Shown here one piece after another: positions 2,877 to 36,914 of a stretch of DNA of 64,000 nt; position 1 is the first letter of the stretch, and each line of letters begins with the position of its first letter. The notes beneath the pieces are model-generated. The model worked only from the letters and a program-made list of their open reading frames with translations. It was not told the DNA's origin and did not search any database. Source of the stretch: Actinomycetes bacterium (lineage in GTDB: Bacteria > Actinomycetota > UBA4738 > HRBIN12); assembly GCA_021155985.1 (NCBI GenBank), contig JAJNBA010000001.1, positions 10,700 to 74,699 of the forward strand, read 5' to 3'. The position numbers were made by a program, and so were the translations under genes.

Positions 2877-4764
<1,888 letters not shown>

Positions 4765-33819: not shown

Positions 33820-34614
33820 ATGACCCGACCGAACCCTGAACTCCCGGTGCAGAGCGGGGTGGTGGACACCCACTGCCACCTGTTCTTGGTGGACCGGGAA
33901 CCTTCACTGGTGGTCGAGGCCGCGCGGGCGGCGGGCGTCGACCGCCTGCTGTGCGTCGGCGTGGACCCGGCGACGTCGGCCATGTCCCTCGAGCTGGCGG
34001 ATTCGATCTCCGGTGTCTTCGCCACCGCCGGGATGCATCCCCACGATGCCGGGCACTTCGACGAAGCGGCGGGCGCGAGGATCGAGGAGCTGCTCCACGA
34101 CCCCCGAGTGGTGGCCGTGGGGGAGTGCGGCCTGGACTTCTTCCGGATGCGATCGCCCAAGGAAGACCAGGTCCGGACGCTGCAGGCGCACATCTCGCTC
34201 TCGAACGAGTCCGGGAAGCCGATGGTCGTCCACGTCCGCGACGCGTGGCCCGAGGTCCTTCGAGTCCTGGATGAGGCTTCGGCGGAACGCGTCGTGATCC
34301 ATTGCTTCAGCGGCGACGCCGCGATCGCAACGGAGTGCGCCGAGCGCGGGTATTGGATCAGCTTCGCGGGCAACATCACGTACCCGAAGAACGAGCACCT
34401 CCGGCAGGCGGCGCGCGCCGTGGACGTCGACCGCATCCTCGTGGAGACGGACGCGCCGTTCCTCGCTCCGCAGACCCTCCGCGGGACCGACAACGAGCCT
34501 GCGAACGTCATCCACACGATCGCCGAGGTTGCACGCGTCCGCGACGAGGACGTGCGAAGCGTCTCGGAGGCGACGTCGCGCAACGCCGACGCAGCGTTCC
34601 CCGGTCTCTCCTAG
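33820..34614 (+). CDS. tatD: TatD family metal-dependent hydrolase
   Basis: Motifs VDTHCHL, GECGLDF, HCFSG, ETDAPFL. TATCAT lies 9 nt upstream of the ATG. Confidence 0.9.
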   Translation: MTRPNPELPVQSGVVDTHCHLFLVDREPSLVVEAARAAGVDRLLCVGVDPATSAMSLELADSISGVFATAGMHPHDAGHFDEAAGARIEELLHDPRVVAVGECGLDFFRMRSPKEDQVRTLQAHISLSNESGKPMVVHVRDAWPEVLRVLDEASAERVVIHCFSGDAAIATECAERGYWISFAGNITYPKNEHLRQAARAVDVDRILVETDAPFLAPQTLRGTDNEPANVIHTIAEVARVRDEDVRSVSEATSRNADAAFPGLS

Positions 34615-34640
34615 GCCGAACACACGTTCGCCGCTCAAGG

Positions 34641-34670
34641 TTGCAGTGAGAGTTGAGGGTTTGCTAGCGT
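34641..34670 (+). promoter_or_regulatory. candidate sigma-A-type promoter (TTGCAG - 18 nt - TAGCGT) inside a noncoding gap
   Basis: The locally AT-richer stretch GGTTGCAGTGAGAGTTGAGGGTTTGCTAGCGTGCGTTTT begins ~27 nt after the tatD stop. No start codon lies within 70 nt downstream. Confidence 0.4.
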
Positions 34671-35070
34671 GCGTTTTCCACAACAGCTTCCGAGGTCGCT
34701 CGCGTCCCGTGTGGGTACCGGGTCCTCGGAGGGAGCGGGCGGTAGATGCGCGACGTTCGGACGACGACTCGGCAGCATCTTCGGGTTCGGCGTGTGACGT
34801 CGTCATCGAACGAACGTCCCCGAGGTGTGGGGGACTGGTTGGTGGACGGAGCGGTGGTGCCCGGTTGGAAGCGCGTGGGCCTCACCGCCGAGACCTCGGT
34901 TTCCGCCGGCGGCGTCGGGACATCCTCGGCCGAGTCCGTGCGGGTTCTCGCGTTCGGGGAAGGTGCGCGAGGGCTCGACGACCACGGATCCGACCGGGGA
35001 GCTCCTCTCGGCCATGGGGATCGTGCCCTTCGCTGACGGCGTCCAGACAACAGCCAGCGCCCCCCTTCAC

Positions 35071-35103
35071 GTTCGGTCCCGGGCCTCCGGCCCGGGACCG
35101 AAC
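35071..35103 (+). terminator. perfect 15-bp GC-rich hairpin (possible terminator, processing or regulatory site) just upstream of rsmA
   Basis: GTTCGGTCCCGGGCC-TCC-GGCCCGGGACCGAAC. It ends 15 nt before the TACGCT hexamer of rsmA. There is no U-tract. Confidence 0.35.
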
Positions 35104-35130
35104 CCGTTCCGGCCCCGTTACGCTCCTCGC

Positions 35131-35997
35131 GTGAGCACCGCTGAACACGCATCGTTCGGCGCGGGCGCGTTGCGCGCCCTCGCCGAACGCCACGGCATCC
35201 GACCGAAGCGGTCACTCGGTCAGCACTTCCTGGTCGACCCGAACCTCGCGCGCGCGATCGCCGCGGATGCGGGGGTCGGGCCGGGCGACCGGGTCGTCGA
35301 GATCGGCGCCGGACTCGGCTCGCTCACGCGAGCGCTCGCGGAAGCGGGCGCCGAGGTGCTCGCGGTGGAGGTCGATCCCTCGCTGATCGCGGCGCTGGAG
35401 GAATCGGTCTCCGGGCTGGACCGGGTGCGGGTCCTCCATACGGATGCGACGGATCCCGAGTGGCAGGACGCCCTCGACGGCGACGGGTGGGTGCTGGCCG
35501 CGAACCTGCCGTACAACGTCGCCACCCACGTCGTGCTGGACACGCTGCGGGACGTCCCCCGGGTCCGGCGCCTCGTCGTGATGGTGCAGCGCGAGGTCGG
35601 CGAGCGTCTCGTCGCCGCCCCGGGCGAGTCCGCCTACGGGATCCCGAGCGTCCGCGTGGCCTACCGGGCCGAAGGCGCCCTGGTGCGCCGCGTGCCTCCG
35701 TCGGTCTTCTGGCCGCGCCCGAAGGTGGAGTCCGTGATCGTGCGGCTCGTGCGCCGGGACGAGCCGGCGGTGGCCGTCGACGAGCACCGGCTCTGGGCGG
35801 TCGTGGATGCCGCGTTCGGCGAGCGGCGGAAGACGATGCGGAACGCCCTCCGCCGGCTCGGCCTGGAGGGCGAGGTCGCGGACGAGCTGCTGGGAGCCGC
35901 CGACGTCGATCCCTCGGCCCGGGGAGAGACGCTCTCGCTCGAGGAGTTCGCGCGGATCGCCGGGTCCCTCCCCGAGGACACGGCGCCAGCGAGATGA
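35131..35997 (+). CDS. rsmA: 16S rRNA (adenine1518/1519-N6)-dimethyltransferase RsmA/KsgA
   Basis: Motifs LGQHFLVD, VVEIGAGLGSLT, ANLPYNV. GTG 35131 follows TACGCT N6. The 102-codon 5' extension in the track lacks homology. Confidence 0.92.
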   Translation: MSTAEHASFGAGALRALAERHGIRPKRSLGQHFLVDPNLARAIAADAGVGPGDRVVEIGAGLGSLTRALAEAGAEVLAVEVDPSLIAALEESVSGLDRVRVLHTDATDPEWQDALDGDGWVLAANLPYNVATHVVLDTLRDVPRVRRLVVMVQREVGERLVAAPGESAYGIPSVRVAYRAEGALVRRVPPSVFWPRPKVESVIVRLVRRDEPAVAVDEHRLWAVVDAAFGERRKTMRNALRRLGLEGEVADELLGAADVDPSARGETLSLEEFARIAGSLPEDTAPAR

Positions 35998-36914
35998 CCG
36001 GAGCCGAGATCCGGGGGCTGGTGATGCCTGCGCACGCGAAGATCAACGTGTTCCTGCGCGTGCTCGGCCGGCGCGACGATGGCTACCACGACATCGAGAC
36101 GATGCTGCTGCCGATCTCGCTCGCCGATCACGTGCGCGTGGAGCCGGCCGAGGAGCTCTCCGTGTCCGTTGAAGGATCCACCGCCGCAGGGCTGCCTGGA
36201 GGCGACGCGAACCTGGCGCTGCGGGCGGCGAGGGCGCTCGCCGCCGAGGCCGGCGGCGCGGAGCCGGTGGGCGCGCGCATCACGATCGACAAGCGGATCC
36301 CCGTCGCCGCCGGCCTCGGCGGCGGATCGGCCGATGCGGCGGCGACGCTGTTGCTGCTCGACGAGCTGTGGTCGACGGGGTTGGGCCGCGACGGCCTCTC
36401 CCGGCTCGCCGCGGAGATCGGATCCGACGTTCCCGCCCTGCTCCTCGGGGAGCCCGCGTACGCGAACGGACGCGGCGAGCGTGTAGCGACCGTCCTCGTG
36501 CAGTCGACGACCTGGGTCGTGAAGCCGTTCGCGTTCGGCGTGTCGTCCTCGGACGCCTACGCCTGGTGGGACGAGGAGCCGGTGACGGGTCCGGACGCCG
36601 GCGCCTTGATCGCTGCGGCGGAGGCCGGCAACGACGCCCTCGTCGGCAGCGCGCTCACCAACGACCTCCAGGGCCCGGTCGCCGCACGTCATCCCGAGAT
36701 CGCGGCGACGGTCGAAACGTTCGTCGACGCCGGTGCGCTCGGCGCCGTGATGACGGGGTCCGGTCCGACCGTGGTCGCGCTGTGCTCGTTCGCTGCGGCC
36801 GAGCACGTGGCGGGATCGGTCCCGGGAGCGTTCGTGGTGGAGGCGCCGCCGCGCGCGCCGGCTCCTGCCAGAATCGACGCCGGAACCGAAGCAGGTCCCT
36901 CCGGGGTGGTCTAA
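35994..36914 (+). CDS. ispE: 4-diphosphocytidyl-2-C-methyl-D-erythritol kinase IspE
   Basis: Motifs AHAKINVFLRV and PVAAGLGGGSADAAA (GHMP kinase). ATGA overlap with the rsmA stop. The last 15 nt run into tRNA-Gln. Confidence 0.9.
   Translation: MTGAEIRGLVMPAHAKINVFLRVLGRRDDGYHDIETMLLPISLADHVRVEPAEELSVSVEGSTAAGLPGGDANLALRAARALAAEAGGAEPVGARITIDKRIPVAAGLGGGSADAAATLLLLDELWSTGLGRDGLSRLAAEIGSDVPALLLGEPAYANGRGERVATVLVQSTTWVVKPFAFGVSSSDAYAWWDEEPVTGPDAGALIAAAEAGNDALVGSALTNDLQGPVAARHPEIAATVETFVDAGALGAVMTGSGPTVVALCSFAAAEHVAGSVPGAFVVEAPPRAPAPARIDAGTEAGPSGVV

Follow-up and report, generated by a model that had tools for sequence, protein, structure and literature searches.

The tatD-rsmA interval and its promoter

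In the window analysed here, a stretch of 64,000 nt, metG and tatD (33820-34614, + strand; PF01026, E = 4.9e-74) are followed by a gap of 516 nt (34615-35130), by rsmA (GTG start, 35131-35997, + strand; PF00398, E = 1.4e-47) and by ispE (35994-36914, + strand), which carries the GHMP kinase N and C domains and overlaps rsmA by 4 nt. The initial annotation had described this gene order and had read the gap as a non-coding, promoter-bearing and structured interval without an Rpf-like ORF. All of this, and conservation of the interval as well, is borne out by the Pfam matches of tatD, rsmA and ispE and, for the gap, by diversity that is flat over codon positions, by covariation and by the fold z-score given below. 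The ORFs of the gap matched no Pfam family, and a profile search of the genome for the Rpf domain (PF06737) found none in the gap and one weak match elsewhere (C19, E = 0.003). An Rfam scan of the gap at E <= 10 returned only noise (HIV DIS, miRNA families, and mraW with 18.7 bits where the gathering score is 50), by which known riboswitches, 6S and ydaO were ruled out. The ydaO (c-di-AMP) riboswitch occurs upstream of rpf genes; ydaO-yuaA was absent among the matches in the gap at this threshold.

The gap begins with a LexA (SOS) box, CGAACacacGTTCG (34617-34630, no strand assigned), which ends 10 nt upstream of a -35 hexamer. The motif CGAAC-N4-GTTCG has 18 sites in the genome, against none for the reversed control, with one site upstream of recA and two upstream of lexA, and 14 of 18 relatives have GAAC-N4-GTTC equally far from the promoter block. 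CGAACacacGTTCG, which has the same motif as the recA and lexA sites and lies near the promoter, would place this locus in the LexA regulon. Repression by LexA is not assured, since the box sits upstream of the -35 element and not over the promoter, an arrangement that differs from that of recA.

The promoter TTGCAG-18-TAGCGT suggested initially is present at 34641-34670 with its 18-nt spacer, within a conserved block (34631-34673, + strand) that comprises the -35 element TTGCAG (34641-34646), an extended -10 TGC (34662-34664) and the -10 element TAGCGT (34665-34670). A consensus promoter scan of the E. coli type did not flag it, because the -35 element fits that consensus at only three of six positions, and its support comes from conservation instead: the block is nearly invariant among 20 genus members (nucleotide diversity 0.10), retains 79-94% identity in other genera and families, and is recognisable across the order. 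Transcription would start near 34677.

Descent from a wall-hydrolase gene

In relatives, the slot between tatD and rsmA is filled by ORFs of 330-405 aa which carry DUF348, G5 and DPBB_1 domains and whose stop codon overlaps or abuts the start of rsmA; in the rest of the order the intact DUF348-G5-DPBB_1 gene is translationally coupled to rsmA. With these intact genes as queries, tblastn gave one match over 34806-34961 and another, in the following frame, over 34957-35070 (E = 1e-9 to 1e-10). This homology, together with the same slot, the same promoter block and a colinear segment of about equal length, points to common descent, and the gap is a recognisable relic of the YabE/RpfB-like wall hydrolase gene that fills the slot in related genera. 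The initial annotation had held that a recognisable rpf pseudogene would speak against its RNA reading, and a relic of the slot's gene is what we found. As for its placing of the gap in the slot of rpfB, a homologous slot gene did exist, albeit one that encoded, judging by the domains of the relatives' ORFs, a DUF348-G5-DPBB_1 protein and not the Rpf-domain protein RpfB.

Of the old gene, only N-terminal codons and one frameshifted DUF348 segment survive, and the TM segment, the first DUF348, G5 and DPBB have been deleted. Instead of an intact ORF with DUF348 repeats, G5 and a C-terminal muralytic domain, only 34806-35070 can be aligned, across a frameshift. The alignment places the frame-breaking 1-nt insertion at about 34953-34955 ('CGCGTTCGGGG' vs 'CGTG-AAGGGG' of relatives), and tblastn places the switch of frame at 34957-34961. 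The relic peptide joined over both frames had no Pfam match, G5 and DPBB are absent from the gap, and tblastn of the genome revealed no second copy of the gene.

Between the promoter and the conserved part of the relic lies a fast-evolving segment (34677-34822, + strand), all that is left of the former 5' UTR and the N-terminal codons, in which 'MRDVRTTTRQHLRVRRV' at ATG 34746 corresponds by peptide colinearity to 'M.VRPTRVRRLRIRK' of intact genes. Diversity of 34691-34822 is 0.308, near that of third codon positions of the flanking genes, and 26 of 137 columns are gapped. The imperfect hairpin proposed at 34752-34818 exists and falls in this segment, with a few compensatory changes; among the genus sequences (alignment A1 below), helices 1-3 of the segment hold a few compensatory pairs. 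Homology to the slot's gene, the frameshift, the large deletions and the about neutral rate of 34691-34822 all fit a plain decaying pseudogene of which only the promoter was kept for rsmA-ispE. We strongly disfavour this explanation on account of the part of the relic that follows.

A conserved and structured RNA core

The region 34823-35074 (+ strand, 252 nt) is a conserved structured RNA core, homologous to a segment of about equal length in intact genes (from 'VGVW' to 'TPLH'). The gap does hold a structured RNA, as first proposed, although the conserved RNA is the core rather than the whole gap, and is intragenic in relatives. Nucleotide diversity of the core is 0.091, or 0.090/0.106/0.078 by codon position, as compared to 0.095/0.088/0.355 in rsmA, and thus lies 3-4 times below that of third codon positions (17 genomes; 0.295-0.355 in tatD and rsmA). 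Gaps occur in three of its 283 columns, and L009 and L011 carry frameshifting single-base indels at unpaired positions. The core is conserved beyond the neutral rate without codon periodicity, and the flat diversity over codon positions, the frameshifting indels and the lack of a Pfam match together indicate that it is not coding. Both the promoter and the RNA domain are under purifying selection about as strong as that on non-synonymous sites of the neighbour genes.

A small protein under selection, either the product of a 96-aa ORF (34746-35036) or a frameshifted DUF348 product, is hardly credible against this background. ATG 34746 is invariant and has an SD-like GGAGG upstream, and the ORF is 96 aa long in 19 of 20 genus members, L011 being back in frame after three 1-nt insertions. 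Against it, no frame has a third-position excess, the middle 55 residues of L011 lie in a different frame, divergence is free over the 27 residues at the N-terminus, Pfam gives no match for the joined relic peptide, and G035, a second relic-bearing genome, has no equivalent ORF. Every + frame is open over the core, which makes an open frame uninformative here, and the 96-aa ORF, also without codon periodicity, was rejected as a candidate. An N-terminal extension of RsmA from ATG 35014 or GTG 34825 was likewise rejected, the frame being disrupted in L009, L010, L015, L020, L011 and L019.

The gap folds on the + strand with a minimum free energy of -167.6 kcal/mol (z = -3.32), and none of 200 shuffles was as stable; on the - strand z is -1.64. 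Covariation was assessed in 24 genus sequences (A1), in 27 sequences from the genus and other genera (A2), in 16 intact genes of other genera only (A3) and in nine held-out sequences (A4). The core is a domain of several helices, with two invariant hairpin loops (GGGGAAGG and UCGGCCAU), and is closed by a long-range helix, P1, in which the 5' strand (GGUGUGGGGGACUGGUUGGUGG, 34824-34845, + strand) pairs with the 3' strand (ACAACAGCCAGCGCCCCCCUUCAC, 35047-35070, + strand) in RNAalifold predictions on A1, A2 and A3. P1 contains compensatory pairs at A2 columns 17/247 (GC 17, AU 6, GU 2, UG 1) and further ones at 18/246, 20/244 and 21/243. Inside P1, the hairpin CUCGCG/CGCGAG with the invariant loop UUCGGGGAAGGUG (34947-34971, + strand) is unchanged in 24 genus members, and the hairpin UCCUC-UCGGCCAU-GGGGA (35003-35020, + strand), whose sequence reads LLSAMGI in intact genes, is better conserved than any other piece of the RNA, with two of its five pairs invariant in 27/27 A2 sequences and two more in 26/27. 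The self-complementary arms GGCCGAG and CTCGGCC listed in the initial annotation do exist, at 34928-34934 and 35007-35013 and so one base off the positions given there, and they do not pair with each other in the covariation-supported fold.

The aligned regions of relatives support this fold in 24 genus members, 16 intact genes and nine held-out sequences. In A1, 98.1% of cells are paired, with 14 double-change pairs vs 2-9 in slid controls. The corresponding values are 94.0% paired (controls 46-51%) and 21 double-change pairs (controls 8-12) in A2, and 91.8% (43-54%) and 25 (7-15) in A3, while 93.1% of cells are paired in the held-out set A4 (43-52%); the covariation score of A2 is 0.351 vs 0.065-0.10 in controls. 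None of 500 shuffles reached the observed pairing values, except for one of 500 on one measure in the held-out set. Compensatory changes thus exceed controls, held-out sequences included. Much of the core is invariant within the genus, and many pairs are therefore uninformative in A1. In A2, some of the covariation distinguishes the genus from the other sequences and could go back to a small number of events, a point which A3 and A4 address.

Two other features were considered and rejected. For a pseudoknot between the GGGGAAGG loop and a CCUUC tail, the only informative variant, L030, alters both sides in a way that is not compensatory. A 10-mer, GGAAGGUGCG, also occurs at the actinobacterial 16S 3' end; as to mimicry of 16S helix 45, UGCG is not conserved in relatives, the flanks form no GGAA tetraloop hairpin, and the MAG is without a 16S 3' end.

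The + strand is presumably the RNA strand, given the folding z-scores and 157 G-U as compared to 16 A-C cells in the + strand fold. Action from the opposite strand, as an antisense RNA, or as protein-binding DNA seems very improbable. It could be argued that both homologous loci, yabE of B. subtilis (with S25) and rpfB of M. tuberculosis, have documented antisense RNAs (PMC8464778; PMC6009663), that GGCCATGG is palindromic, and that the - strand has a weak match to mraW-RNA (E = 0.59). However, the latter is far under the gathering score (18.7 vs 50 bits), G-U exceeds A-C by about 10 to 1, 82% of cells pair on the - strand vs 94% on the +, the - strand fold is not unusually stable, and long-range covariation is unexpected for a DNA site. 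A 70-aa minus-strand ORF from the palindromic CCATGG was also rejected; it has an early stop in L018 and L036, is very short in L022 and L029, and is shifted in frame in L011.

In intact genes the RNA domain sits inside the reading frame, and its synonymous sites are frozen. These include GTG GGG GTC TGG in the P1 5' strand, GGG AAG in the loop hairpin at 34947-34971, and, across 16 genera, CTC CTC TCG GCC ATG GGG ATC in the hairpin at 35003-35020, and the rare codon CTT of CCC CTT CAC is conserved in the P1 3' strand. A second relic was found in G035, which is short and has the promoter fused directly to P1, in a genus of which two other members (G433 and G262) are intact. The G035 lineage would thus have lost the gene independently and kept promoter and core, independence resting on the GTDB genus assignment; identities of 72-74% at the nucleotide level do not resolve the tree.

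All this bears on the plain pseudogene raised above: in a region free to decay one would not expect a core 3-4 times less diverse than third positions and almost free of indels, helices preserved by compensatory changes, a new covarying hairpin added after the core (see below), the same core retained in a second lineage, and the same nucleotides frozen at synonymous sites of intact genes. The normal divergence of the flanking genes also argues against recent gene conversion, or horizontal spread among genus members, behind the low diversity.

The distribution of the RNA is limited to a single uncultured order of Actinomycetota; all of its carriers are uncultured MAGs, recovered from soils (Microflora Danica 'MFD' and 'SMAG' samples). 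Among 32 genomes of the order, 20 contain the motif of the hairpin at 35003-35020; of 369 genomes from elsewhere 2 do, each with a mismatch. A covariance model (R1) scores 223 bits at the core, its sole strong match in the window. Of the genomes sampled, it detects the RNA in seven of nine from the order and in none of 112 from the rest of the phylum, one weak match of 27.6 bits (G063), inside an unrelated ORF, being excluded as a false positive. L085 and L086, outside the order, gave no match to the model.

The 3' end, possible roles and known systems

The perfect 15-bp GC-rich hairpin described at 35071-35103 (+ strand) is present, covaries, and lies directly 3' of P1. It is kept in the genus, with pairs 410/439, 413/436 and 414/435 changed on both sides (A1; also L010 and L045), and is absent in relatives, where the reading frame runs on. 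This genus-specific hairpin is a candidate 3' end, terminator or attenuator. It is without a U-tract, and the terminator scan of the gap found no U-tract terminator; terminators without a U-tract have been reported in Actinobacteria. Further downstream, the -10-like hexamer TACGCT noted before rsmA lies at 35119-35124 (+ strand; element to 35133), 6 nt before the GTG at 35131. CTACGCTC is conserved in the genus and the spacing to the start is 6-7 nt, while the surrounding 35104-35130 varies (diversity 0.266), as does the distance to the hairpin, and conservation of the frame does not extend upstream of the GTG. Such a placement is typical of leaderless mRNA, and TACGCT may serve as a promoter. 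The most reasonable transcript would be an RNA of ~430 nt from the predicted start near 34677 to the hairpin end at 35103, and conservation and covariation back the reading of a structured RNA.

We propose that the ancestral mRNA of the DUF348-G5-DPBB_1 gene carried a ~250-nt folded RNA domain inside its coding sequence, and that in this genus the protein was lost through domain deletions and a 1-nt frameshift, with the LexA-box promoter and the RNA domain retained. The locus would now be an RNA gene, transcribed from about 34677, whose transcript ends or pauses at the new 15-bp hairpin, and rsmA-ispE would have acquired its own leaderless promoter, TACGCT. We give a probability of roughly 0.65 to this reading, namely that the gap is a hydrolase-gene remnant whose RNA domain outlived the protein and that what acts is the RNA itself, without need of the protein. 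That it acts as an autonomous, DNA-damage-regulated non-coding RNA, e.g. by binding a protein or ribosome, is plausible but slightly more doubtful than not. Inside intact genes, ribosomes would unfold the RNA structure, which is at odds with an easy account of its action there.

A cis element setting read-through or processing into rsmA-ispE is possible, albeit rather unlikely. In a 5' leader or attenuator, the fold, perhaps in response to a ligand, to a protein (RsmA, for instance) or to the relic ORF being translated, would control either the passage of RNA polymerase through the 35071-35103 hairpin or the processing of the mRNA; we consider this explanation doubtful as well. The element is always upstream of, and co-oriented with, rsmA-ispE, the 15-bp hairpin abuts the P1 3' strand where the expression platform of a riboswitch is expected, and in G035 the core reaches ~35 nt from the rsmA ATG with no hairpin between. 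Moreover, rsmA in intact operons is translationally coupled and without a visible promoter of its own, and mycobacterial rpfB-ksgA-ispE is co-transcribed behind an RNA switch (PMC6009663). On the other hand, most genera have the element ~550 nt ahead of rsmA and within a translated frame, an odd position for a leader, and a TAnnnT hexamer 6-8 nt before the rsmA start in both relic-bearing lineages suggests an independent leaderless promoter. In addition, no alternative antiterminator pairing was identified and no known riboswitch class matches (Rfam, E <= 10).

Returning to the RNA domain that outlived its protein, a wider proposition, which we are as ready to doubt as to accept, is that it represents an undescribed RNA family of ~250 nt inside the coding sequence of the YabE/RpfB-slot hydrolase across one uncultured order, with a protein-independent function; that it has outlasted its host gene on two or more occasions; that in this genus it has turned into a non-coding RNA gene of its own, preceded by an SOS box and equipped with a newly acquired 3' hairpin; and that it may physically explain the linkage of the slot with rsmA-ispE across Gram-positives. 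Proof of conserved RNA structures in bacterial coding sequences is difficult, as constraints on the protein conceal them, and here two gene losses would remove the protein while the RNA stays selected, so that the two constraints are cleanly separated. The outcome would be a new RNA family, supported by covariation and served by a defined promoter that carries a LexA box, and one route to a non-coding RNA gene, in which the reading frame of a dual-function mRNA decays. It also suggests a specific reason why tatD, rpfB/spsB, ksgA and ispE are linked, an association long known but unexplained (PMC1084345), and warns annotators that the gap is not empty and is more than a simple pseudogene.

Among known systems, the B12-sensing 5'-UTR switch of M. 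tuberculosis rpfB sits at the same syntenic locus (tatD, hydrolase slot, ksgA/rsmA, ispE) and is likewise a structured RNA with a terminator-like hairpin upstream of rsmA-ispE (PMC6009663; 10.1101/2024.07.19.603033). That switch consists of a 5' UTR ~130-170 nt long and has a poly-U terminator, whereas the RNA described here is ~250 nt long, intragenic in a DPBB-type homologue and without a U-tract; it has no cobalamin or other Rfam match and is restricted to a different, uncultured order. Model match, 5'-UTR location and poly-U terminator, the marks of a cobalamin riboswitch or RpfB switch, are thus lacking. The RNA is not a counterpart of the mycobacterial rpfB 5' leader, which the initial annotation had brought up; the mycobacterial switch is confined to pathogenic mycobacteria (PMC6009663; 10.1101/2024.07.19.603033). 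At the protein level, the ancestral gene shares slot and DUF348/G5 N-terminal scaffold with RpfB and with B. subtilis YabE (SpsB; DUF348-G5-3D), in line with the tatD-spsB/rpfB-ksgA synteny with displacement of catalytic domains, its own catalytic head being a double-psi barrel (DPBB_1) and that of RpfB Rpf (PMC1084345). Unlike these genes, the protein is gone in this genus and an RNA-level element remains; the known RNA at B. subtilis yabE is the antisense S25 (PMC8464778).

Conserved folded RNAs within a transcription unit instead of a classical 5' leader, which could act on downstream genes or as processed stable RNAs, are also represented by EAR, the processive-antitermination element of the B. 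subtilis eps operon, and by sRNAs that derive from coding sequences or 3' UTRs. Unlike EAR-type elements, the RNA described here overlaps a translated frame, persisted after that frame died, and has no Rfam similarity. An RNA structure embedded in the gene is not known from yabE or rpfB. The locus has neither the synteny of Ms1 (HAD-IB hydrolase and oxidoreductase; PMC9130861) nor a match to 6S in the Rfam scan; what the core shares with these RNA-polymerase-binding RNAs of Actinobacteria is a size of ~250-300 nt, a highly structured fold with a long closing helix, and its occurrence in Actinomycetota.

A dead wall hydrolase gene between tatD and rsmA

In other genera, the slot between tatD and rsmA is occupied by an ORF of 330-405 aa encoding an RRLR-rich N-terminus, then a TM segment, one or two DUF348 domains and G5, with a DPBB_1 (RlpA-like) domain at the C-terminus. 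At the loci examined, the stop codon of this ORF either overlaps the downstream gene's start or lies right against it. The tatD, rpfB/spsB, ksgA, ispE synteny and catalytic-domain displacement are already known (PMC1084345). In the window, tblastn with the intact proteins matched two stretches in successive frames, 34806-34961 and 34957-35070 (E = 1e-9 to 1e-10), and nucleotide alignment with relatives places a 1-nt insertion immediately 5' of GGGGAAGG. The relic starts at ATG 34746, where 'MRDVRTTTRQHLRVRRV' is the counterpart of 'M.VRPTRVRRLRIRK' in relatives, and lacks the TM segment, the first DUF348, G5, and DPBB. The two tblastn frames, the insertion, and the relic start mark a pseudogene, so that the gap (34615-35130) is a dead gene, an outcome that the initial annotation had named as refuting its reading. 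What stood in this slot ancestrally, though, was not an Rpf-domain RpfB but a YabE-like DPBB protein. No second copy of the gene was found elsewhere in the genome, which is 91% complete. The only Rpf-like (PF06737) signal in this genome is a sub-threshold match (19.6 bits, E = 0.003) within a 438-aa open frame on contig C19 (27763-27960, minus strand), which may represent another transglycosylase.

The gap is flanked by tatD (33820-34614, with metG further upstream) and rsmA (GTG, 35131-35997), the latter followed by ispE (35994-36914). The promoter hexamers TTGCAG-18-TAGCGT (34641-34670), the imperfect hairpin (34752-34818), the perfect 15-bp hairpin (35071-35103), and the -10-like TACGCT before rsmA (35119-35124) are all present as annotated; the GGCCGAG and CTCGGCC arms are also present, but at 34928-34934 and 35007-35013, one base off the annotated coordinates. 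No ORF of the gap matched Pfam, an Rfam search of the gap at E <= 10 returned noise only, and a promoter and terminator scan of the gap with E. coli-type consensus returned nothing.

An RNA domain shared with living genes

The entire gap is 77-96% identical in 26 same-genus genomes. Two pieces of it, the promoter block and query positions ~209-457, extend beyond the genus to further genera and families of the order. The carriers, within the genus and outside it, are all uncultured soil MAGs of Actinomycetota. Over 17 genus members, nucleotide diversity of the core (34823-35103) is 0.091 (0.090, 0.106, and 0.078 by frame position; 3 of 283 columns gapped), compared with 0.084, 0.048, and 0.295 by codon position for tatD and 0.095, 0.088, and 0.355 for rsmA. 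Constraint on the core is therefore comparable to that on non-synonymous sites, yet carries no coding signature, and a neutral relic is disfavoured, even with a diversity of 0.308 and 26 of 137 columns gapped in the 5' segment (34691-34822). A small protein encoded here is likewise disfavoured: open frames are uninformative here, since the core can be read through in all three plus-strand frames, and two of the aligned loci (L009 and L011) have single-base indels within it, at sites unpaired in the fold.

RNAalifold on 24 genus sequences (A1) gave a multi-helix domain closed by a long-range helix, P1, formed by GGUGUGGGGGNCUGGNUGGUGG (34824-34845) and ACANCANCCAGCGCCCCCCUUCAC (35047-35070) and directly followed by the 15-bp hairpin. 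Within the genus, many of these pairs never vary; 98.1% of cells are paired, against 41.5-50.9% in slid controls, with 14 double-change pairs against 2-9. An alignment combining 11 sequences of the genus with 16 of intact genes (A2, n = 27) folds into 43 pairs in eight helices (94.0% paired against 46-51%; 21 double-change pairs against 8-12), and its covariation score of 0.351, assessed against shuffle and slide controls rather than by R-scape, compares with 0.065-0.10 in slid controls and was reached by none of 500 shuffles. Taken by themselves, the 16 intact genes (A3) led independently to the same architecture (91.8% paired against 43-54%; 25 double-change pairs against 7-15; covariation 0.331 against 0.05-0.11). 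A covariance model built from A2 (R1) picked up eight more intact-gene copies at 167-207 bits, and the held-out intact-gene sequences found by it retain the pairs (A4, nine held-out sequences: 93.1% paired against 43-52%; 14 double-change pairs against 4-8). The analysis shows that the RNA domain is already present inside the living gene elsewhere, and that in the dead gene this domain and the promoter are still under selection. The literature search turned up no structured RNA described within genes of the DUF348 family.

G-U pairs far exceed A-C pairs (157 versus 16 cells) and the folding z is -3.32 on the plus strand versus -1.64 on the minus strand, indicating an RNA read on the plus strand. 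The known RNA of yabE is the antisense S25 (PMC8464778), but this strand evidence argues against an antisense element here; such an element, or one acting at the DNA level, is disfavoured.

In intact genes, the core is colinear with a segment of similar length that begins with the VGVW codons and ends with the TPLH codons. Synonymous sites in this segment are frozen across 16 genera (GTG GGG GTC TGG; GGG AAG; CTC CTC TCG GCC ATG GGG ATC; CCC CTT CAC); in the DPBB domain of these genes, third positions vary in the ordinary way (0.17, 0.17, and 0.42 by codon position). Across the order, most of the protein (the first DUF348 and G5) diverges fast at all codon positions (~0.4-0.55; intact loci L021-L037 and L087-L099), the conserved parts being DPBB and the segment that carries the RNA. 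Given this divergence elsewhere in the protein, RNA constraint may hold motifs like VGVW and LLSAMGI as much as protein constraint does.

A second gene loss and a probable separation from rsmA

Of 32 sampled genomes of the order, 20 contain the invariant hairpin motif; of 369 from the rest of the phylum, two do, each with a mismatch and neither matching R1. In a scan of 121 genomes, R1 hit 7 of 9 order genomes; its sole hit elsewhere in the phylum (27.6 bits), inside an unrelated ORF, was rejected as a false positive. One genome of another genus, G035, carries a shorter relic of the same gene (L028, G035:C3:1490700-1492000, minus strand), in which the 5' strand of P1 follows straight on from the -10 hexamer and which R1 aligns end to end (66.9 bits). 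Since its congeners G433 (L087) and G262 (L099) have an intact gene of 384-405 aa, this loss appears to be independent of that in the window's genus, with flank identities of 72-74% leaving the tree unsettled.

The 35071-35103 hairpin is genus-specific and nearly invariant, with three double-changed pairs; at its position the reading frame of relatives runs on. Downstream, CTACGCTC (35119-35133) is conserved despite variable surroundings and a variable distance to the hairpin. In the genus, 6-7 nt separate the end of its -10 (TACGCT) from the rsmA start, as in a leaderless mRNA, and judged by this spacing rsmA appears to be leaderless there. G035 has TACCGT 8 nt ahead of the rsmA ATG, and in relatives with an intact upstream gene the rsmA start overlaps the stop codon of that gene.

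In this genus, a new terminal hairpin together with a new promoter for a leaderless rsmA seems to have divided the old operon, and the locus would now be an RNA gene. Such a split speaks for an autonomous RNA, at a probability that we put near 45%; a leader or attenuator acting in cis on rsmA-ispE is possible but less likely. The mycobacterial rpfB switch, a B12-binding 5' UTR of pathogenic mycobacteria only (PMC6009663; 10.1101/2024.07.19.603033), is comparable in locus and in the concept of RNA controlling rpfB-ksgA-ispE, but matches the gap RNA in neither model nor position. Ms1 differs from the gap RNA in synteny (PMC9130861).

LexA box and promoter block

Just upstream of the relic's promoter, CGAACacacGTTCG (34617-34630) matches the LexA box of this organism, CGAAC-N4-GTTCG, which has 18 sites in the genome versus none for the reversed control. 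At recA, one box (C111:9773-9786) occupies the space from the -35 to the -10, and two perfect boxes lie upstream of lexA (C68:3224-3237 and 3258-3271). Across the order, the relic's box is conserved in place: 14 of 18 relatives have GAAC-N4-GTTC equally far from the promoter block. The relic's box is placed ahead of the -35, which makes any regulatory effect uncertain. Further LexA-type sites with RNRY-type spacers (C36:9505, C40:16676, C70:45924, C77:61056, C77:65421, and C20:130) probably mark additional SOS genes.

Within 34631-34660, the promoter block also contains an inverted repeat, CTCAA-N14-TTGAG, across the -35. It is conserved well beyond the needs of a sigma-A promoter, which suggests a candidate site for a second regulator besides LexA.
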